Source: Parcubacteria group bacterium (GTDB lineage Bacteria; Patescibacteriota; Minisyncoccia; Phycocordibacterales; UBA2135). Taken from it: DNA of 64,000 bases. Position 1 is the first letter of the stretch, and each line of letters opens with the position of its first letter. Shown here piece by piece: positions 5,186 to 61,842 of this stretch. The notes beneath the pieces were generated by a model. That model was not told the DNA's origin and did no database searches. It saw nothing but the letters and a program-made list of their open reading frames with translations. The position numbers and the translations under genes were made by a program. The DNA is taken from positions 1,202 through 65,201 of the forward strand of contig JACOWN010000005.1 of NCBI GenBank assembly GCA_016176785.1, read 5' to 3'.

Positions 5186-5258
5186 CCGCCCATAGCTCAG
5201 TTGGTAGAGCAGCTCCCTTTTAAGGAGAGGGTCGCAGGTTCGAATCCTGCTGGGCGGA
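5186..5258 (+). tRNA. tRNA-Lys (anticodon TTT)
   Basis: Manual cloverleaf: acceptor CCGCCCA/TGGGCGG, D-stem GCTC/GAGC, anticodon stem GCTCC/GGAGA with one mismatch, loop CTTTTAA (U33, TTT, A37), T-arm GCAGG-TTCGAAT-CCTGC, discriminator A. No encoded CCA. Confidence 0.82.
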
Positions 5259-5328
5259 CAAAAGGAGGTTGGTACGATCACGCAGTCAGGAGAGAAATAC
5301 CGCCTTACAAAACAAGAGGTCTCCTCGG

Positions 5329-20521: not shown

Positions 20522-21619
20522 TTATGTGTTGAGCGGCATGACCAGTGCGGTAAACGACCGGTCGCCGACGTTCCGAACCACCACCGGCCGCGCTTCGCCG
20601 TTACACTGCAGCGAAACGCTGTCACTCGCGACCGACTGGAGACAGTCGGCAAGATACCGCTGATTAAAACGCAGCGTAACCGGTTCTCCGGAGAGCGCCG
20701 CGTCGAGAGAGACGGAGTGTTCGCCGATATCGGCGTTTTTTGAGGCAATGGTGAATTGCTTGGCGGACGGGTCTATCGTGAGCACGACCTGGTTGAATTT
20801 ATCCGCGAACAAATGCGACACCTTAAGCGCGTTAACGAGGTCTTGCTTCAACACGACCGCGTCCGTCGTGCTGGTTTTGGGAATAATTTGTTTGTAGTCG
20901 GGGAAAACCCCGTCAATCAAGCGTGACGTCAGGTATACCCCGTCATAGTGGAACGATATTTGATTTTTATCGCTCCGTATCATTACATCGCCGTTTTTAT
21001 CTTCAAACACGCGGATAATTTCCGCTACGTTTCTAAGGGGAACAAGAATTGAGAGGTCTTCTTTGTTGCCCTGAGACTGGATTTTCTTCTCAGATAAACG
21101 AAAAGAGTCGGTCGCGACGAATGTGCTGTATTCGGGATTGAGGGAAATGAAAACACTTGATATCTCAGGTTTTATGTCCGACGTTGATGCGCTGTACCAT
21201 ACCGATTTTAAGCCGTTCAAAAGCGTTTGAACGGGAAATGGGGATGTTTTTTCCGCTGATACAACGGGAAGTGTCGGAAAATCCTCGTACGGAAACCCTT
21301 TTATCAAAGAATTGTTTTTGCGGGTTTTTACAGATAAATTACCTTTTTCCTCCTCAAGAACGATATCATCTTCATTTATGTACGAGAGAAGGTTATTAAG
21401 AAGGTTCCCGGGAACGGCAATAATGCCTTCTTTTTTCATTTTCACCGGAACTTCAAATTCAATACCGATATCAAGGTTTGTTGAACGCACTTTTAACACG
21501 TCATCGCTTGCCAAAAGAAGGATGGTGCTCAAAATAGGCAGAGAAAGATTCTTTCCTGTCATTCGTTCCGCTCTTGAAACGGCATATTGCAGTTTATTTT
21601 TTGAGACGCTTATTTTCAT
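20522..21619 (-). CDS. dnaN: DNA polymerase III beta sliding clamp
   Basis: Three-domain clamp, N-terminus MKISVSKNKLQYAVSRAERMTGKN..., 365 aa, immediately downstream of dnaA. Confidence 0.9.
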   Translation of the reverse strand: MKISVSKNKLQYAVSRAERMTGKNLSLPILSTILLLASDDVLKVRSTNLDIGIEFEVPVKMKKEGIIAVPGNLLNNLLSYINEDDIVLEEEKGNLSVKTRKNNSLIKGFPYEDFPTLPVVSAEKTSPFPVQTLLNGLKSVWYSASTSDIKPEISSVFISLNPEYSTFVATDSFRLSEKKIQSQGNKEDLSILVPLRNVAEIIRVFEDKNGDVMIRSDKNQISFHYDGVYLTSRLIDGVFPDYKQIIPKTSTTDAVVLKQDLVNALKVSHLFADKFNQVVLTIDPSAKQFTIASKNADIGEHSVSLDAALSGEPVTLRFNQRYLADCLQSVASDSVSLQCNGEARPVVVRNVGDRSFTALVMPLNT

Positions 21620-21877
21620 AATAATAAAAAATATTTATATAAAAGGATTTTTATTATGATATATCTGTTGATATGTAGATAAGTGGGATTATTTTTACCA
21701 AATTATGCATTTTTTGAACGATTTATTTTTTATATCCTGTTGAAAATATGTGTATAAAAAACATTCTGTATTTTGAAACAACAGGATAATTTATTTTTTC
21801 ATATTATAAAAAATTTTTTTCAACACAGTATCAACAGAAAAAAGTTTCTTATGCACACACTTACGCACAGAAGGAAA
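21620..21877. promoter_or_regulatory. Candidate replication origin / DNA-unwinding region in the dnaA-dnaN spacer
   Basis: 258-bp strongly AT-rich spacer in a 60% GC genome. DnaA-box-like TGTaGATAA (21674-21682) and TTATCCtgT (revcomp at 21781-21789). Inverted CTGTTGAAA/TTTGAAACAACAG repeats. Confidence 0.45.
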
Positions 21878-23254
21878 TTACTGCTGTTGCGCGAACAGAG
21901 ACCGTATTCGTTCCAACTCATCCACAAGAACTGTATCTTTTTTAAGGTCGTTTTTTATTTTGTCGCATGAATGAATAACGGTTGTATGGTCACGTCCGCC
22001 GAGGCGCTGGCCGATGGTCGGGAACGAAATACTCAGATCCTCGCGAAGAATGTACATAATGATTTGCCGCGGTTTTACGATCTCTTTTTTTCGCGTCTTC
22101 TCATAGATGGTTGATTTTTCAATGTTATAGAACTCCGACACGACGTGCACAATATCTTCAACGGAGAGCGTTTTTCTCGGTTTCTCGTTGTTTTTAAGGA
22201 GTGTTTTAACTTCAAGCAAGGCAAGGTCCCGATTTTTGAGCTGCGCTTGGCATACGAGGGCGTTTAAAAGACCTTCAAGCTCCCTGATGCTCCCCTTTAT
22301 GTTTGAGGCGATATATTCAATGATCTCGTCGGACGGGCTAAAGTTGATGTGGCGTGACTTTGTCTTCAAAATAGCGACACGTGATTCAAAATCGGGGTCG
22401 GAGATATCAACTATCATCCCGGCGCCGAACCTGGATTTCAGCCGCTCCTCAAGATTTCCAATGAAATTATAATGCTTGTCCGAAGAAAAAATAATCTGCT
22501 TGTTGTTGTCATACAGCGTGTTGAAGAGATGGAACAGCTCGTCTTGCGTCCCCTGCTTCCCCGAAAGAAATTGAATGTCGTCCATGATAAAAACGTCATA
22601 CTTCCGGTATTTTTCTTTGAAAACGTTGATTTTATTGGCTTGGACGGATGTAATGAGGTCAAGATAGAATTTTTCCGAAGTAATATAGAATACTTTCTTG
22701 TCCCCGTACATCTCTTTAATTTTGTTGCCCGTCGCCTGGAGAAGGTGCGTCTTGCCGAGTCCGGTGCCGCCGTACACAAAGAGCGGGTTGTAAACCGAGC
22801 CGACACTCTTCATGATCGCTTGCGTCGCGGTGTAGGCAAGCTCGTTGAACGGCCCGACAACGAACGTGTCAAACGTATAACGCGGATTCAGATTGTCATC
22901 CTTGTTGATATACAGGTCTTTGAGAGGGAGCTCGCCGTAGAGCTGCGGCGCCGATTCCGCAAAGCCGGGCTTTTGCTGTTCGGTTTTTGAAATAACGATA
23001 TAGTCAATGCCGCGTATGTTTTCGCTGATCATGCGGAGCGATTTGAGGATGAATTTGTGGTACTTGTTTTGAAGCCACTCTTTAACAAACCCGTTCGGCA
23101 CGCCAAGATATACGACGCCGTCCGCCTCTTTGACGATAGAAGTGTTTTTGAACCATGTCGTAAAATTTGCCCGCGAAACGGCGCGTTCAATGTCCGCAAG
23201 AGCCGCATCCCACAACTGTTTGGTGTCGGAGATGTTGTGTTCTTGTTCTGGCAT
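21878..23254 (-). CDS. dnaA: Chromosomal replication initiator DnaA
   Basis: AAA+ Walker A GGTGLGKTHLLQATGN, Walker B IFIMDDIQFL, sensor/box VII, C-terminal DnaA-box binding HTH (DHTTVIHSCDKI). Confidence 0.93.
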   Translation of the reverse strand: MPEQEHNISDTKQLWDAALADIERAVSRANFTTWFKNTSIVKEADGVVYLGVPNGFVKEWLQNKYHKFILKSLRMISENIRGIDYIVISKTEQQKPGFAESAPQLYGELPLKDLYINKDDNLNPRYTFDTFVVGPFNELAYTATQAIMKSVGSVYNPLFVYGGTGLGKTHLLQATGNKIKEMYGDKKVFYITSEKFYLDLITSVQANKINVFKEKYRKYDVFIMDDIQFLSGKQGTQDELFHLFNTLYDNNKQIIFSSDKHYNFIGNLEERLKSRFGAGMIVDISDPDFESRVAILKTKSRHINFSPSDEIIEYIASNIKGSIRELEGLLNALVCQAQLKNRDLALLEVKTLLKNNEKPRKTLSVEDIVHVVSEFYNIEKSTIYEKTRKKEIVKPRQIIMYILREDLSISFPTIGQRLGGRDHTTVIHSCDKIKNDLKKDTVLVDELERIRSLFAQQQ

Positions 23255-52504: not shown

Positions 52505-53422
52505 ATGAAATTAATGTCGCACAATCTTCGGGGACTCAAAAAAGAGTTTTTGGAATATCTTGAAATAGAAAAAGGGCGCGCGGCGCGCACCATTGAATTG
52601 TACGACCAGTATCTCGGCAGGTTTCTCCGCTTCCCCGGCCTCAAAAACGCCGCCGACATCACGGACGAATCGGTGCGTCGTTATCGGCTTGCCTTAAACC
52701 GCGCGGGAATGTCCAAAAAAACGCAGAATTTTTACCTCATTGCGTTGCGGCAGTTTTTGAAGTTTTGTGCGCGCCGCGGCATCGCGTCGCTTCCCGCAGA
52801 ACGCATAGAACTTGCGAAACAAAGCGACCGCGACCTTGACCTCATTTCTTCGGATGAGCTTGAACGCCTGCTCGCCGCGCCGTCCGGTTCCGATGAAAAA
52901 AATCTTCGCGACCGCGCCTTGCTTGAGCTCCTTTTTTCAACCGGTCTTCGCGTTTCGGAACTTTGCGCGCTCTCGCGGCATCTTGACTGGAGCCGCGATG
53001 AGATCTCCGTGCGCGGCAAGGGCGGCAAGGTGCGTCTCGTGTTCCTTTCGCCGCGCGCGAAAAGCGCGGTTAAGGCGTACCTCGCGAAGCGTTCTGACAT
53101 CGGCGACGCGCTCTTCGCGCAGGCGGAGCGTCGTGCGAAAAACAAAAGCGTATCCGAGCCGCGCCGCATCACGCCGCGGCTTGTGGAACGCATCGTGAAG
53201 CACCACGCGATACGGGCCGGCATTGATAAGCGGGTGACGCCGCACATGCTTCGGCACATGTTCGCGACCGACCTCCTCCAAAACGGCGCCGACCTTCGTT
53301 CCGTCCAAGCGCTTCTGGGGCATGCGCACATTGCAACGACACAGGTCTATACGCACGTAACGGACAAGCACCTGAAAGACATCCACCGCGCCTTTCACGG
53401 GAAAGGGCTTGGGGAAAAATAA
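52505..53422 (+). CDS. Tyrosine site-specific recombinase (XerC/XerD-like)
   Basis: N-terminal SAM-like core-binding domain. Catalytic R...K...HMLRH..AT..L..G.DLRSVQALLGHAHIATTQVYTHV with the Tyr nucleophile. Confidence 0.85.
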   Translation: MKLMSHNLRGLKKEFLEYLEIEKGRAARTIELYDQYLGRFLRFPGLKNAADITDESVRRYRLALNRAGMSKKTQNFYLIALRQFLKFCARRGIASLPAERIELAKQSDRDLDLISSDELERLLAAPSGSDEKNLRDRALLELLFSTGLRVSELCALSRHLDWSRDEISVRGKGGKVRLVFLSPRAKSAVKAYLAKRSDIGDALFAQAERRAKNKSVSEPRRITPRLVERIVKHHAIRAGIDKRVTPHMLRHMFATDLLQNGADLRSVQALLGHAHIATTQVYTHVTDKHLKDIHRAFHGKGLGEK

Positions 53423-55944: not shown

Positions 55945-56096
55945 TCAACACGAACAGAGCCGGACGCGGAGCGTCCGGCGACTTTCGTGTTTGCGTCGGG
56001 AGGGATTCGAAAGACGGAGGCGGGGGTACCCCGCAGAATGCATCAACACGAACAGAGCCGGACGCGGAGCGTCCGGCGACTTTCGTGTGTGCGTCG
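55941..56096 (+). repeat. Two ~58-bp direct repeats (55941-55998, 56039-56096) starting in the last 4 nt of tRNA-Arg. Each contains hairpin GCCGGACGC-ggag-GCGTCCGGC.
   Basis: TGCATCAACACGAACAGAGCCGGACGCGGAGCGTCCGGCGACTTTCGTGT(T/G)TGCGTCG read twice. The 40-bp spacer carries an inverted TTCGAATCCCTCC 13-mer identical to the tRNA-Arg T-arm/acceptor junction. Confidence 0.7.
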
Positions 56097-56130
56097 TTAT
56101 TTGAAAACTCAAGCGTAGCGCCGTCACAAC

Positions 56131-57015: not shown

Positions 57016-57086
57016 GCGGGCATAGTTTAGTGGTAGAACACGACATTGCCAATGTCGAAACGGGGGTTCGATTCCCCCTGCCCGCA
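57016..57086 (+). tRNA. tRNA-Gly (anticodon GCC)
   Basis: Acceptor GCGGGCA/TGCCCGC. Anticodon stem CGACA/TGTCG, loop TTGCCAA. T-arm GGGGG-TTCGATT-CCCCC. Discriminator A. Confidence 0.85.
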
Positions 57087-57334
57087 CAATAGTGGACTTT
57101 TTGCGATTCGGCGCATCAATCGCCGTTTCTATGTCAGAAAAATTGGAGGTTCTAACATCATCTAATTGCCCGCGTAGAGAAATTGAATTTTTTATTGCAG
57201 GGGAATAAATTCTTCTGAAAAATAAACCGTTTTTAAATGTTTTGAAGGAGGTTCTAACATGCCGTTGCAATTTATCAAAGTTTAAAGTAAGTTGGTAATA
57301 GAGCAAAAGAGCCATCCTGTCACAGGAGGAAAAG

Positions 57335-57655
57335 ATGAGGAGCAAGGTCTCAGTCATTTGCTGGTCGATTTTTGCAATTACAGTGATCGGCGCAGGAATC
57401 CTGATTTCAGATGCCTGTAATAGTGATCCAACTGGATGCGGATACGTGTTCGGATTAGGACCAATAGTTTTTTTGATGTATGGCGGTCTCCTTTATCTGC
57501 TCATCCCGCTTGTTGGTATTATCTTTGATGCTTACAAATGGAGGATGTTGAAGGACAAGGGGGTTGGAATTTGGGGAAGAACCGTGGGCACTTCTGTTTC
57601 TTTTGTCATCTCTGTCTGGGCATTCCCACTTTTACTTCTTCTGATCGGATTTTAA
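57335..57655 (+). CDS. Cassette 1 cargo: small 3-TM membrane protein
   Basis: AGGAGG SD 7 nt upstream. Hydrophobic helices VICWSIFAITVIGAGILI, IVFLMYGGLLYLLIPLVGII and SFVISVWAFPLLLLLIGF. Confidence 0.4.
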   Translation: MRSKVSVICWSIFAITVIGAGILISDACNSDPTGCGYVFGLGPIVFLMYGGLLYLLIPLVGIIFDAYKWRMLKDKGVGIWGRTVGTSVSFVISVWAFPLLLLLIGF

Positions 57656-58230
57656 CCAATCAGGCGCACGACCCACATACGGGTACGGCGCCTATTTTTT
57701 GTTGATGAGCTTTATGTACGTTGTGTTTGTTCTCGAATGGTACCCATAAAAATATCTCAGCCTGCTTCTATCAGCGTATTAAAGCGTTTTTGAAGCGTAG
57801 TAAACCATCATTGACTAGACTCATTACCGCCCCCTAGAGAGGTTCTAACCTGTTCTCCTAAAGTGCATAAAAATAACGAGCACAAAGCGGAGCTTTGGGC
57901 GACTATGTTTTTATAGCGGGTAGGGAGAATCGAACCGAGGGCTGGCGAAAGAAATCCATGAGAGTGACCGATCCCCCTGCCCGCACAATAGTGGACTTTT
58001 GACGCCCTCGCGCATCAATCGCCGTTTCTATTTCAGAAATCTTGCGGGTTCTAACATCGTCTCGTTGCCCGTATAGGGAAATGGAATTTTTTATTGACGA
58101 AAAATAAAATATTCTGAAAAAGAAACGGTTTTTTGATGACTTACCAGAGGTTCTAACACGGTTTACATTTGGGACACTATCTGTTAAATTGGTTAATAGA
58201 ATTCAAAGTGCAAGATTATGGAGGGTTATT

Positions 58231-58542
58231 ATGCCTAAAGCAGACGTGGTTCTTGAAATCTATTTTGACATTAATAATCCAGAGAAAACTGTAATAAAAA
58301 CCAACGCCAAGGAAGAAGCACTTGAAGAGATACTTGAAGCATGGCTGTATTGCCAAATTGGACAGGGTAAAGATGAGAGCAAGCCGAACAGACAGGATAC
58401 GTACAAAATAAAAATCCAATTGGATTTAAGCGACGACACTTTCTACACCAACAGCAATACGGGGAACAAAGGACTTACCTGCGGAATCATTATGGACGTG
58501 TTCAAGAGGTTGGGTCAGATCGAGGTTCTTAATCTTTCATAA
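58231..58542 (+). CDS. Cassette 2 cargo: small hydrophilic protein (103 aa)
   Basis: GGAGGG SD. Start at MPKADVV inside the track ORF 58189-58542. Followed by terminator GGCCGACATGTGTCGGCG plus a T-run. Confidence 0.35.
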   Translation: MPKADVVLEIYFDINNPEKTVIKTNAKEEALEEILEAWLYCQIGQGKDESKPNRQDTYKIKIQLDLSDDTFYTNSNTGNKGLTCGIIMDVFKRLGQIEVLNLS

Positions 58543-59099
58543 ATCATCAAGACAAAAAGTTAACGCCGACACATGTCGGCCTTTTTCTTTTAGAAAGGTT
58601 CTAACGTCGTCTATAAAAGTGCACAAGACAACAAAAATACAGGGCTTTTGTCCTGTATTTTTGTTGTCGTTATGCGAGGTAGAGCGAGCAAACTGCTTTG
58701 CTCGCGTGGGGAATCGAAAAGCGGAGCCATCCTGAGCGAGCGAAGCGAGTCGAAGGGGGCGAGCTCGGGGAGGAAGTTCTTAGCGAAGACGAGCGCGAAG
58801 TTTGAGCTTAGAAACTTGACCCCGATTCCCCCTGCCCGCACAGAATTTCATTTTGGGCGCTTCGTCAACGCTTAGGGTGTTTCTAGATCAAAGTTTTTAC
58901 GGGTTCTAACAACGCTCCTTTTCTTGTATAGGGAAGGAGAACTCTATAGAACTTAAAAATTAAAATTTTCTGAAAAACAAACGATTTTTTCATAATTTTG
59001 CAGAGGTTCTAACTTGTATGACGTTGCCTTGTGTTTTTTTTGGTTTGCGTTATATTGAACCTAGAATGCAACTAACTTCATCAAGAAAAGGAGCTCGGA

Positions 59100-59741
59100 A
59101 TGAGCAAGCTTCTCCATATCTTTTTTGCTTTAATGATAGCGATGGGATTGTCATCCACTTCTTCGTTCGCAACTGAACACGACGGGAATCCCAGTCTCTG
59201 CGAAAATCCGTGGGAATCGGAAGGCAGCACGTCGAGTGCGACTGAAATAGGAAGAAGCAGGCGCATCATCTCCGAGTGTAAGGTTGTTAATCCACAAACT
59301 CTGGATATTTCTTCAAACCCCGCTCTTGCTGATTTTTTGGGCGAAATAAAAAAAGATCTGTGGGACACTGAAAGATTGCCCAAAGATGTTCTCTATCGTT
59401 ATACCCTGACGATTATTAACGATTGGGACAAAAATGTTTCTGTAAATCTTTCGAGGTGGGAAGTTGTGCACTCACCGTACACATTGGTAGCGAAAGGTTT
59501 TGTTGTTGATATTCCAGCATGTTCGTATGCTCGCATTCAGTTTCTTTCTCCGTGGGCTCCTGAACTGTATGCTTCCCCCGTTAACATTGGCATGACGACT
59601 AAGGACGGAGAATGGTCAGCAATAGGCGACGGTATAGCAAGTATTCTGACGCCGGTGTGGTACCAGTATTTTTCAGAAGGAATGAATGTTGATCGCCTGC
59701 CTCCAGATGAAACAAAAACAAAGGCGTGTTCTTCAAAGTAA
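59100..59741 (+). CDS. Cassette 3 cargo: secreted protein (signal peptide, 213 aa)
   Basis: AAGGAG SD. Signal peptide MSKLLHIFFALMIAMGLSSTSSFA. Cys residues present. No known motifs. Confidence 0.4.
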   Translation: MSKLLHIFFALMIAMGLSSTSSFATEHDGNPSLCENPWESEGSTSSATEIGRSRRIISECKVVNPQTLDISSNPALADFLGEIKKDLWDTERLPKDVLYRYTLTIINDWDKNVSVNLSRWEVVHSPYTLVAKGFVVDIPACSYARIQFLSPWAPELYASPVNIGMTTKDGEWSAIGDGIASILTPVWYQYFSEGMNVDRLPPDETKTKACSSK

Positions 59742-59949
59742 TAGCCATTTTTGGACAAACGAGCCCTGCGAATAAGTGGGGCTTTTTGTTTAAAAACAGG
59801 TTCTAACTTGTTCTCCTAAAGTGCATAAAAATAACGAGCACAAAGCGGAGCTTTGGGCGACTATGTTTTTATAGCGGGTAGGGAGAATCGAACCGAGGGC
59901 TGGCGAAGCGTATGCAACGCACAAACAATCGATTCGCGGGGATTTTTGT

Positions 59950-60746
59950 GGGAAATTACGTTTCACATGAAAACTTTTGCAAAAGAATGAGAGTATAGTT
60001 TTAATCTTCTGGGGATAACTCTGTGGATTTGTGTATAAAGGACATTGGTTGTTTTTGTCTTTTTGCTCATGATGTCCTATTTGTTCCTTTATTTTCCTGT
60101 GTTTTTATGTTATTCTAAAAAAGACAATCAAAATTAGTTTATGGTTTTCACGTGAAACATAGCGATAGTTTTCACGTGAAAACACTTTTCATGTGTAACA
60201 TACTAGTGAGTTAGTTACATGTGAAATGATTTTTCTGTGTAATAATGAAGTATCTAGATGAACTTAAGAAATTGCGTTTACATTGCGGAGAATATGCCGT
60301 TTTTGGCTCCGGACCGCTTGCGATAAGAGGATTGGTAGAAAACACCGACATTGATCTTGTCGTTAGCGGTGACTTATGGGGGAAGTTAAATAAAGAATAT
60401 CTGAAGCGTTAAAAATCGTAGTTTCATGTGTAACACATGGCTCCGCATAATAAAATCGGAACATTGGGGGAAAATATTGCTTGCCGTTATCTTGAAAATA
60501 GGGGTTTTGATATTATTGAGCGGAATTATAGAAAACCGTGGGGAGAAATTGACATTATTTCCGTAAAAAATGGTTTTCTTCATTTTATTGAGGTAAAAAC
60601 GGTTACACGTGTAACAAGCAATGGTACGCAAAGAGGAGAGTTCCGCCCCGAGGACGCGGTTCACCGGTGGAAACAAGAGAGAATGCGGCGAGTTATACAG
60701 TCATACCTATCTGATTACAAGAAAAGGAATGTTACACGTGTAACTG
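59950..60746. repeat. Nine copies of a CACGTG/CATGTG-centred palindrome (TTTCACGTGAAA / GTTACACGTGTAAC) in 800 bp
   Basis: Copies read at 59950, 60144, 60168, 60186, 60213, 60421 (overlaps the yraN-like ATG), 60601 and 60731. The last two lie inside the CDS and both encode VTRVT. Region GC is ~33-38%. Confidence 0.65.
60245..60412 (+). pseudogene. 56-codon ORF resembling the N-terminus of a minimal nucleotidyltransferase (possible gene fragment)
   Basis: MKYLDELKKLRLHCGEYAVFGSGPLAIRGLVENTDIDLVVSGDLWGKLNKEYLKR. The G[SG]x(9-13)DxD pattern is present but the protein is far too short. Below the ORF-track cutoff and found by reading the sequence. Confidence 0.25.
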
Positions 60747-60853: not shown

Positions 60854-60943
60854 AGGACATTTGTCCTTTATAAATGTCTTTTACAAAACATTCGGTTGCG
60901 GAACGGTGGTTTTTATTTTTGACGCGTGATATATTTCTTGCAT

Positions 60944-61014
60944 CGGGCTGTAGTATATCGGCAGTACACATGCATGGGGTGCATGTAGGCCGGGTTCGAT
61001 TCCCGGCAGCCCGA
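60944..61014 (+). tRNA. tRNA-Pro (anticodon GGG)
   Basis: Acceptor CGGGCTG/CAGCCCG. D-stem GTAT/GTAC (one G-U pair). Anticodon stem CATGC/GCATG, loop ATGGGGT. T-arm CCGGG-TTCGATT-CCCGG. Discriminator A. Confidence 0.78.
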
Positions 61015-61162
61015 ACGCAGTGAGGGATGAGCAGGCAAACTGCTTTGCCTGCGTCCGGAATCGAAAGCCGGAGCATCCCGCCAAGGGCGGGAGCGAGGCG
61101 GGGTCGCAAGTACTTATGAGCGGAGCGAATTAGTAACTTGTGACCGATTCCCGGCAGCCCGA
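61015..61162 (+). mobile_element. 130-bp insertion remnant flanked by 18-bp direct repeat of the tRNA-Pro 3' end (60997-61014 and 61145-61162). Homologous to the A' arm of the tRNA-Gly array.
   Basis: CGATTCCCGGCAGCCCGA read twice. Internal GAGCAGGCAAACTGCTTTGCCTGCGTCCGGAATCGAAAGCCGGAGCATCCC (61029-61079) is ~80% identical to 58683-58733. Confidence 0.6.
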
Positions 61163-61191
61163 TATATCAGATTGGTTTAGATATTTATTCC

Positions 61192-61842
61192 ATGAAAAAA
61201 CAATTTTTTATTTCGCTGGTCATTTTTCTGGCGGTTTTTGCGTACGCCGTCATCAGATACAACGTACTTAAAGGTACTCCCTGGATTGACCTGCCTCTTT
61301 TTGTTTCCAACAAAGCTATTTCACTTTCTGCCGTCATATTCATTGCGCTCTCATATGCGCTCGGCTCCCTCGCGCGGTTTTGGCCGGAAACAATTCTTTC
61401 TGTCTTGACCTTTCGCAAATTTTTTGGATTGCTCGGCTTCGGGCTCGCGGCATTTCATGCCGCCGTCTCGCTGCTCATTTTTACGCCATCGTATTATCCG
61501 AAGTTCTTCTTGGGTGGGGAAAAACTTAACCTTACCGGAGAGCTTTCTTTATTTTTTGGTGTTTTAGCATTTTTTGTTTTTACGCTGGTAGCCATTTCCT
61601 CAATTCCCGCAGTGGCACGAGCGATGGAGCGGGAACGCTGGCTGGCAATCCAACGGTTCGGCTACCTCGGTCTTGTCCTGGTCTTTTTCCACGTGTTCGT
61701 TATGGGTTTTGAGGGGTGGCTCCGACCCGCCGGTTGGCCCGGCGGGTTGTTGCCGATAAGCCTTATTGCCGCCGTTGTCATAGCATTGGCGCTGTTATTA
61801 AAAATTGCGGCAACGATTTTTTCTAAAAAACGGATCGGATGA
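61192..61842 (+). CDS. Ferric-reductase-like transmembrane domain protein (MsrQ/YedZ-like, 6 TM, conserved His pairs)
   Basis: Six hydrophobic helices with His residues in helices 3 and 5 (FGLAAFHAAVSLL, VLVFFHVFVMGF), the heme-binding arrangement of the ferric reductase domain. Confidence 0.5.
   Translation: MKKQFFISLVIFLAVFAYAVIRYNVLKGTPWIDLPLFVSNKAISLSAVIFIALSYALGSLARFWPETILSVLTFRKFFGLLGFGLAAFHAAVSLLIFTPSYYPKFFLGGEKLNLTGELSLFFGVLAFFVFTLVAISSIPAVARAMERERWLAIQRFGYLGLVLVFFHVFVMGFEGWLRPAGWPGGLLPISLIAAVVIALALLLKIAATIFSKKRIG

Follow-up and report, generated by a model that had tools for sequence, protein, structure and literature searches.

A segment of 148 nucleotides may look unremarkable in a 64,000-nucleotide stretch of DNA (contig JACOWN010000005.1 of a Parcubacteria group bacterium; the whole stretch is "the window" below), but the one at 61015-61162, directly behind a tRNA-Pro gene, is almost certainly a complete unit of a large family of non-coding modules. 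These modules are about 130-170 nt long, lie directly 3' of tRNA genes in Patescibacteria (the candidate phyla radiation, CPR) and Elusimicrobia, and combine a conserved scaffold (the paired regions P2, P4 and P5) with arms that are specific to the tRNA. No description of the module was found in the literature searched, and the family is apparently undescribed. Firmly shown are membership in the family, a strand-specific fold (that of the tRNA-sense strand), the match between the arms and the neighbouring tRNA, a spread over two phyla, and gain, loss and relocation over evolutionary time. The tRNA-Pro gene and the parts of its module are the following (MFE, minimum free energy; R1, the covariance model introduced below).

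60944..61014, + strand: tRNA-Pro(GGG) gene (Rfam tRNA, 53.7 bits; ARAGORN gives 60943-61016)
60997..61014, + strand: first copy of the 18-mer CGATTCCCGGCAGCCCGA (exact match; position in the tRNA from alignment)
61015..61022, + strand: spacer ACGCAGTG between tRNA-Pro and the arms (sequence; terminator-free)
61023..61029, + strand: antisense acceptor arm AGGGATG, the 5' strand of P1 (sequence, MFE fold, family-wide arm test)
61031..61052, + strand: P2 hairpin, GCAGGCAAA-CTGC-TTTGCCTGC (MFE fold, RNAalifold, R1 alignment)
61055..61063, + strand: antisense T arm CCGGAATCG, the 5' strand of P3 (MFE fold, RNAalifold, R1 alignment)
61068..61099, + strand: P4, with stem GCC/GGC, conserved internal loop GGAGC/GCGAG and variable apical hairpin (helices 3-5)
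61103..61144, + strand: P5, GTCGCAAGT...ACTTGTGAC, with a conserved G·U pair (helices 6-7)
61145..61162, + strand: second (sense) copy of the 18-mer CGATTCCCGGCAGCCCGA, the 3' strand of P3 and P1

The 18-mer corresponds to nt 56-73 of tRNA-Pro (the 3' part of the T-loop, the 3' strands of T-stem and acceptor stem, and the discriminator); CCA is not encoded in the gene. As a preliminary description of this stretch had stated, exactly two copies are present, 130 bp apart (60997-61014 and 61145-61162), and a check for chance sharing, with up to three mismatches allowed, revealed no other copy in the window (0.16 expected). The module ends precisely at the discriminator position (61162). Inside the insert lies an antisense copy of the tRNA-Pro 3' end, divided by the GCAAACTGCTTTGC hairpin (P2), which sits exactly at the acceptor/T-stem junction of that antisense copy. 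P1 is weak in this module, because just 5 of the 7 bases of AGGGATG pair with CAGCCCG of the sense copy; CCGGAATCG pairs with CGATTCC(C)GG, leaving a one-base bulge. The P5 loop contains GCGGAGC (motif GCGNAGC), and the P5 3' strand continues without a break into the sense copy. Since the sense copy pairs with both antisense arms (P1 and P3), the 18-bp "duplication" is a working part of the fold: it is indeed an exact repeat, but not only a junction duplication, as it forms the 3' strand of the closing helices. The open reading frames (ORFs) that cross the insert (94, 67 and 49 aa) were taken as spurious; they overlap the tRNA on both strands.

The fold itself is well supported by comparison. 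In the MFE folds of this copy and of a copy at tRNA-Gly, the terminal sense copy pairs with both antisense arms and two more hairpins form inside. RNAalifold recovered P2, P3, P4 and P5 from 13 subtype-1 copies, with 24 of 38 pairs compensatory, and the covariance model R1, built from a 13-sequence subtype-1 alignment, matched 140 times in the window and 99 loci and 31 times more in the remaining loci (its E-values are rough and the Logan contigs among the material are short). In the 140-sequence alignment, 93.1% of the cells are paired, versus 69.5% when shuffled and 39-49% when the partners are slid; double-sided changes occur at 38 of the 38 pairs and compensatory cells number 1012, against 293 in shuffles, pair counts that are somewhat inflated by the fitting of the alignment to R1 but leave a margin that is still very large. 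Helix 1 (P2) is 99% paired, its outer pairs covarying, and in helix 2 (P3) an A-U/U-A switch follows the difference between GAATC and GATTC T-loops. The G·U pair of P5 is kept in 13/13 sequences and in 51 of about 84 in the larger alignment. The folding strand is the tRNA-sense strand, as seen both in the mismatch pairs (218 G·U/U·G versus 53 A·C/C·A) and in the loop motif GCGNAGC, found 47 times versus 2 times for its reverse complement. The module is kept under structural selection.

This covariation bears directly on the most conventional explanation, i.e., that the repeat is the scar of an integrase-driven, double-stranded island resembling a cis-mobilizable element (CIME): attL and attR left after an internal deletion, with the 18 bp as identity block and the rest as a decaying attP arm. 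Integrases that target the T-loop reportedly have as their classic signature an identity block of this kind (18 bp, T-loop to tRNA 3' end), and the low-GC island and repeated tRNA-Gly 3'-end copies of the window would fit such an origin. Yet decaying or protein-binding duplex DNA would not give covariation at 38/38 pairs, G·U outnumbering A·C by 4:1 and conservation across two phyla; nor is an integrase found in or adjoining the units, the cargo-less form is the norm, and no match was found in the viral contigs searched. We consider a scar very improbable, the covariation and strand asymmetry having already largely refuted it.

The arms are matched to the tRNA that precedes them. P1 is fully complementary (7/7) in 36% of own-tRNA pairings versus 2% of cross pairings, and P3 reaches at least 8/9 in 70% versus 28%. 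The window itself offers a second full member for comparison:

57016..57086, + strand: tRNA-Gly(GCC), anchor of a cassette array (ARAGORN, Rfam, repeat search)
58672..58841, + strand: second full family member, closing cassette 2 of the tRNA-Gly array (R1 100.6 bits; alignment)

R1 scores this copy at 100.6 bits and the tRNA-Pro copy (61019-61163) at 132.4 bits. Its arms match tRNA-Gly (GGGGAATCG / CGATTCCCCCTGCCCGCA), and since they differ accordingly from those at tRNA-Pro (acceptor arm GCGAGGTAG, T arm GGGGAATCG), the antisense arms follow tRNA identity. The preliminary description had put the likeness of the two segments at about 80%; the figure is borne out (83% identity over 46 ungapped nt, 58682-58727 against 61029-61074; local alignment score 57, versus 16.5 +/- 2.5 and a maximum of 25 in 500 shuffles), and the likeness is wider than claimed. 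Global alignment and R1 span the entire element, including TTAGTAACTTGTGAC/CGATTCC against TTAGAAACTTGACCC/CGATTCC, the global alignment reaching TTAG(T/A)AACTTG..C/CGATTCC.

Outside the window, a scan of species-representative genomes with the pattern GCAAACTGCTTTGC-N(4-14)-GRWTCGAA gave at least 120 loci, nearly all in metagenome-assembled genomes (MAGs) of Patescibacteria (Paceibacterota/Parcubacteria, Saccharibacteria and others) or Elusimicrobia, a sample that is biased because the pattern requires GCAAACTGCTTTGC. Nearly all loci of the family are MAG contigs. Among the 125 matches listed, 89 have a same-strand tRNA no more than 150 nt upstream (median 49 nt; 17 isotypes), and behind most of these an exact or near-exact copy of the last 15 nt of the tRNA follows 90-150 nt later. 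In the R1-searched loci, 94 of the 162 tRNAs carry a module. At least three subtypes can be told apart by the middle part, the tRNA-Pro copy of the window being subtype 1. The view that one repeat family has reached two different tRNA genes therefore holds in the window and extends to 16-17 isotypes elsewhere. Two other proposals of the preliminary description have to be given up. The tRNA-Pro copy is no cargo-less "footprint": with 89 of the 125 listed matches within 150 nt of a tRNA, the cargo-less unit of about 130-170 nt is the standard, complete form and not a remnant. Neither is it like a miniature inverted-repeat transposable element (MITE), as terminal inverted repeats are lacking (0-1 of 14 terminal bases complementary, in either unit phase).

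Some loci carry additions to this plan. A small hairpin with the consensus RCGTACTCGYG stands within the sense copy of some modules, between CGA and TTCC of the T-loop part (L034, L043, L052, L077, L109, L110, L028, L040 and L025). The idea that the module is a dedicated 5' leader was rejected, as the downstream context is inconsistent.

The topology of the fold can be likened to that of a tRNA: P1 is a copy of the acceptor stem, the T-stem is reproduced by the first 4-5 pairs of P3, and P2 takes the place of nt 8-48 and P4/P5 that of the T-loop. In the modelled structure, sense copy and antisense arms are predicted to rebuild, on the tRNA-sense strand, a duplex copy of the T-arm/acceptor 3' half of the tRNA. 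This opens the possibility, which we regard as somewhat unlikely but serious, that the modules are a host family of non-coding RNAs (ncRNAs) mimicking tRNA. Such RNAs would be transcribed from the tRNA promoter or by read-through, excised by RNase P, RNase Z and perhaps the CCA-adding enzyme, and would act as decoy, sponge or partner for a tRNA-binding factor; they would have spread through partial tRNA duplication and gene conversion rather than by insertion. The tRNA-sense-strand fold with its conserved junction bases and G·U pair agrees with this, as do the position of P2 exactly at the acceptor/T junction, the end of the unit at the discriminator position, and a sense copy that remains identical to the tRNA while the scaffold diverges. 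So do the housekeeping surroundings, with no linked recombinase, and the absence of the module from viral, phage and plasmid collections. A precedent exists in the rtT RNA of E. coli, a repeat of a tRNA operon that ends in the tRNA 3' end and is freed by processing (older literature).

Other features fit a tRNA-mimicking transcript poorly. The spacer between tRNA and P2 is often terminator-like (about a third or more, read by eye in the printed loci), the terminator-like hairpin being nested in the palindrome of acceptor 3' strand and antisense acceptor arm (likewise read by eye); the module at tRNA-Gly (B2) lies behind a cargo gene and two terminator-like hairpins, and still has its full structure. 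P3 continues into T-loop bases left unpaired by a real tRNA, so that the helix exceeds the 12-bp minihelix measured by tRNA enzymes. Cargo inside units in an order that varies between samples, scaffolds common to different isotypes and an orthologous site without a module are also hard to reconcile with it. As for known RNAs, Rfam at gathering score gave tRNA matches only in the window and 18 loci; at E up to 10, region 60900-61200 gave only tRNA-centred matches at chance level (the best, SpF41 at 31.8 bits versus a gathering score of 52, running into P2), and no match was found to any described RNA family of Rfam 15, including rtT, tmRNA, T-box, self-cleaving ribozymes, group I/II introns and HEARO/omega RNAs. 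A tmRNA, a permuted tmRNA and a T-box were rejected on the ARAGORN and Rfam results, and a group I intron in the T-loop on account of a length that is too short, a last base that is C and not G, and a first tRNA copy that is already complete.

The preliminary description had also spoken of an "active or recently active" family. On the scale of evolutionary time, mobility is supported by an empty orthologue, a relocated copy, scaffolds found across isotypes and cassette order. Homologues of the ferric-reductase-like gene downstream of the tRNA-Pro module (77% amino-acid identity) are present in three loci (L144-L146), where tRNA-Pro(GGG) lies 73 nt upstream of the gene and is free of a module; a check of relatives for a tRNA-Pro without the insert thus succeeded, the orthologous tRNA differing in acceptor stem and T arm. 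On the L144 contig, a module is located behind a non-orthologous tRNA-Pro(CGG) with the 3' end CGATTCCCGGCAGCCCGA; its arms are identical to those in the window and its P2 apex is a different hairpin. With the orthologous site empty and this one filled, the module follows the 3'-end sequence and not the locus. Identity over the P4-P5 scaffold is 0.532 for the same isotype and 0.534 for different isotypes (0.59 for pairs within a locus), and values up to 0.88 occur for Arg/Lys and Ser/Val pairs from different genomes. Units stand in tandem in L029, L085 and L045, and three related genomes that share a tRNA-Lys differ in the numbers and order of subtypes.

Units may also hold cargo, for which the tRNA-Gly array is the local example. 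Behind the tRNA come three cassettes of about 0.85-1.1 kb each, at 41-43% GC versus about 55% for the genome, each with a sense copy at its start and a module at its end (sense copies of the tRNA-Gly 3' end at 57069-57086, 57968-57985 and 58823-58840). Cassette 2 ends in the full R1 member, which is preceded by the two terminator-like hairpins, and the module that closes cassettes 1 and 3 is a P2-less variant:

57916..57985, + strand: P2-less variant module closing cassette 1 (inverted repeat, 90% complementary; fold)
59874..59907, + strand: P2-less module closing cassette 3, truncated in the window (inverted repeat; Logan contigs L136-L139, L002, L004)

In the first, a loop separates the antisense copy GCGGGTAGGGAGAATCGAACC from the sense copy CCGATCCCCCTGCCCGCA; at about 57949 it is without 30 bases of loop. 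At 59907/59908, the window is without about 63 bases (TGAGATTTGTGTGAGCCC...GACCGATCCCCCTGCCC) that the Logan contigs L136-L139, L002 and L004 contain, among them the terminal sense copy of the last cassette, a gap that could be due either to collapse of a repeat in assembly or to a true deletion variant. No Pfam domain was found in the three cassette ORFs. The sequence GGTTCTAAC occurs nine times in 57069-59950, always on the + strand and nowhere else in the window (0.23 expected). Its sites are placed at +79 and at about +181 relative to every sense copy, with another one immediately behind each cassette ORF and its terminator. While the outer flanks of the second and third site of a cassette are 74-99% conserved, the ORFs enclosed by these sites are unrelated, so that GGTTCTAAC looks like the border of exchangeable ORF modules; as a feature of the family it was rejected, being present in just one other locus.

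Elsewhere, cargo of 2.1 kb (L020), 2.6 kb (L046) and 3.6 kb (L077) lies between sense copy and arms. Short-read contigs from other samples run from cassette 3 through a complete module to the leader of cassette 2, and others join a complete module to the right flank; because these joins differ (L136), cassette order or copy number varies in nature. Among the ORFs carried as cargo in L020, L046 and L077 and in the cassettes of the window, neither a recombinase nor an integrase was found.

The mobility, the cargo and the varying cassettes favour insertion, and our preferred, still tentative, explanation is that the module may be a non-autonomous insertion unit, specific for the matching tRNA 3' end and acting as a folded single strand. 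One unit would comprise nt 56-73, spacer, arms and scaffold, with or without cargo, and would join at the universal T-loop, leaving the tRNA intact and displacing the old 3' end downstream; repeated joining would build tandem modules and cassette arrays such as that at tRNA-Gly. The folded strand would show a copy of the target to a putative enzyme supplied in trans, just as a target copy is offered by a folded single strand in the integron attC and the CTX-phage attP(+) hairpin.

The one candidate in the window for such a trans-acting enzyme is this:

52505..53422, + strand: Xer-family tyrosine recombinase (Pfam Phage_integrase 144 bits; NCBIfam XerD/XerC/XerA-like)

It is the sole recombinase among the 20 window proteins scanned; downstream of it, tRNA-Arg follows at a distance of 2.4 kb and the tRNA-Gly cassette array at 3.6 kb. 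The NCBIfam cut-off is passed for the XerA-type model only; against the integron-integrase cut-off of 265, it scores 136 bits. We put it forward as a candidate only.

Several findings weigh against the insertion unit. Within 3.5 kb of 125 modules there is no enrichment of recombinases, transposases or reverse transcriptases, and all-against-all clustering of the 972 ORFs in those surroundings gave housekeeping families only. The core-site pair RYYYAAC...GTTRRRY was found on neither strand in any of 140 modules. Two patterns gave no module in 2.9 million viral contigs; the viral-contig scans with a strict pattern, with that of the genome scan and with a scaffold pattern (the last recovers 13/150 known loci) were all without a match, as was blastn against phage and plasmid records. 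Absent from the collections searched, the module has no known free or vectored form. Empty and filled alleles with identical flanks were not seen in one population. The conserved junction bases, the conserved G·U pair and the tRNA-like topology are traits to be expected of a functional RNA. The pair counts of the 140-sequence alignment (A3), being model-fitted, lean to structure. How the arms are re-specified for new tRNAs is explained by neither of the two leading views. The insertion unit and the tRNA-mimicking ncRNA are not mutually exclusive, and the latter fits the data almost as well.

The age of the tRNA-Pro copy belongs on the same side. A metagenome scan with the tRNA-Pro 3' half gave ten loci. 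One (L133) has the same tRNA and a near-orthologous module in which the P4 apex is replaced and GCAAGT has become GCGGGT, giving G·T pairs on the top strand only; in Kaiserbacteria (L036), a related module stands behind tRNA-Pro(TGG), with arms matching that tRNA and compensatory changes in P4 and P5. Given these compensatory changes, the tRNA-Pro copy is old and has been maintained in place, so that the "recently active" part of the earlier claim is not supported for it. Two loci (L128, L130) share the tRNA 3' half but lack a module, and in seven (L125, L126, L127, L129, L131, L132, L134) that tRNA-Pro 3' half has behind it a structured trailer of another kind, which is longer. That trailer ends in GGGATTC(C/T)GCTTACCCCGAC, the 3' end of another tRNA-Pro-like acceptor, with no match to the adjacent tRNA, and a P2-like hairpin is retained in L127 and L132 (R1 24-26 bits). 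An empty-site junction at tRNA-Pro would read GGGTTCGATTCCCGGCAGCCCGATATATCAGATTGG. Among short-read contigs of sister samples, the Logan contig L002 ends exactly at 61014, the tRNA-Pro 3' end, and L001 starts at 61133, 12 nt before the second 18-mer copy; these breaks would fit a branch of the assembly graph at the module borders, e.g., from mixed alleles, which is only suggestive, no empty allele having been seen.

A further possibility is an RNA-mediated or guide-type system, in which the antisense arms of a module RNA, its sense arm or both find the tRNA gene or the tRNA by base pairing and the module is then copied or recombined in, possibly by retro-insertion primed at the T-loop or as a guide for a recombinase encoded elsewhere (cf. 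the bridge RNAs of IS110). A constant scaffold with exchangeable, target-matching arms is what one would expect, the module stands behind whichever tRNA-Pro gene has the matching 3' end, the fold is strand-specific, and about 18 nt is the length of tRNA primer-binding sites in retroelements. But neither reverse transcriptases nor IS110-type recombinases are enriched nearby, the two kinds of arm, antisense and sense, correspond to identical target positions and form pairs with each other, unlike the guides of bridge RNAs, and the antisense arm has no complement of CCA. We know of no precedent of such a kind and judge this system improbable.

What could this mean for CPR bacteria, whose tiny genomes have few recognizable mobile elements and whose route of gene gain is an open question? 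The module stands behind a large share of CPR tRNA genes, brackets foreign cassettes and matches the tRNA 3' end on both strands; it could be the recombination site of an unrecognized gene-capture system or else a large new class of tRNA-linked RNA. In its boldest form, which we think unlikely, scaffold and arms would be a programmable targeting device that reads the 3' end of one tRNA gene, or of the tRNA, by base pairing and directs its own insertion and that of cassettes through an enzyme encoded elsewhere (an integron-like gene-capture system of CPR bacteria with tRNA genes as anchors and with nucleic acid, not protein, setting the specificity) or, equally new, one tRNA-mimicking RNA per tRNA with a cellular role. 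The covariance model, more than 170 copies, the empty orthologous site and the variable cassette arrays make both readings directly testable. There is a practical side as well, since the partial tRNA copies and repeats of modules break or collapse assemblies (e.g., the roughly 63 bases absent at 59907/59908).

The remaining features of the window are more peripheral. Behind each of the three tRNAs at 55.8-61.2 kb (Arg, Gly and Pro), the 3' end of that tRNA recurs, first as an antisense and next as a sense copy, in the case of tRNA-Arg in reduced form:

55950..56108, + strand: degenerate relative behind tRNA-Arg(TCG) (R1 11.9 bits, E 0.007 in a 5.5-kb search)

Directly 3' of tRNA-Arg(TCG), at 55945-56108, is a 98-bp tandem unit (67 nt at 93% identity) in which a strong hairpin occurs together with a copy of the tRNA 3' end in antisense (55992-56011); as R1 scores just 11.9 bits, it is a degenerate or minimal relative of the family. 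At 59950-60745, six copies of a 14-nt palindrome-like motif (GTTACACGTGTAAC / TTTCACGTGAAAC / GTTTCATGTGTAAC) are located in and around a 55-aa ORF and the YraN (UPF0102) gene, where GC is lower (37%) than elsewhere in that part of the window. The tRNA at 5186-5259, which has no module behind it, is called "Stop, anticodon tta" by ARAGORN, but its anticodon loop CTTTTAA fits tRNA-Lys(TTT) more simply. At 20522-23254, dnaN and dnaA adjoin the lowest-GC kilobase of the window (36%), and the replication origin is therefore probably located there; the tRNA and module region at 55-61 kb would then run in the direction of replication, its folding strand serving as template for the lagging strand.

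Among known systems, the integron attC, the CTX-phage attP(+) and the integrative mobile elements exploiting Xer (IMEX) come closest on the side of mobility, recombination of the module being putative. Like the module, they are structure-defined sites that fold on one strand. As in attC and IMEX, the stem is imperfect, often with a one-base bulge, and imitates the partner site; units lack their own recombinase, need not contain an ORF and are stacked in arrays beside a fixed primary site. Conserved structure, variable sequence and strand bias of a single-strand fold are all found as in attC, but the fold is multi-branched and on the tRNA-sense strand. Unlike attC, the module has no RYYYAAC/GTTRRRY core sites (0/140) and no adjacent intI, its primary site would be the tRNA T-loop, its arms are tailored to each tRNA, and its multi-branched scaffold has conserved junction bases.

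With the elements of T-loop tyrosine integrases (P4-type islands, CIMEs, tycheposon arrays), the module shares a direct repeat from the T-loop to the gene end that restores the tRNA, tandem accretion at one tRNA and low-GC cargo. The identity block of Williams sublocation II is present (60997-61014 equals 61145-61162, with the same layout at tRNA-Gly and most loci), but none of the units examined contains an integrase, unit length is only about 150 bp, covariation is RNA-like, an antisense copy of the target is included, and the same scaffold occurs at 16-17 isotypes. A MITE differs in that the repeat here is 18 bp of functional tRNA sequence, with no terminal inverted repeats, and the IS110 bridge RNA in that the module has no adjacent recombinase ORF and its arms pair together, leaving no open guide loops.

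Among RNAs, the tyrT-distal repeats of E. coli, which give rtT RNA (RF00391), are likewise units downstream of a tRNA, each ending in its last ~19 nt and reportedly freed by tRNA-processing enzymes. They are unrelated to the module in sequence and fold (no Rfam match at E up to 10), are not known to have an antisense arm, and are limited to one operon in enterobacteria. For a putative substrate of RNase P, RNase Z or the CCA-adding enzyme, the feature seen is the topology, with P1 as the acceptor copy and the end of the unit at the discriminator. The tRNA-like domains (TLDs) of tmRNA, the YrlA Y RNA and mascRNA have a similar plan: there, too, an acceptor stem is stacked on a T-stem-like helix and other domains replace the rest. 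These RNAs, however, keep a true T-loop and a fixed identity, whereas the module has a three-way junction in place of the T-loop and stems that copy whichever tRNA lies upstream.

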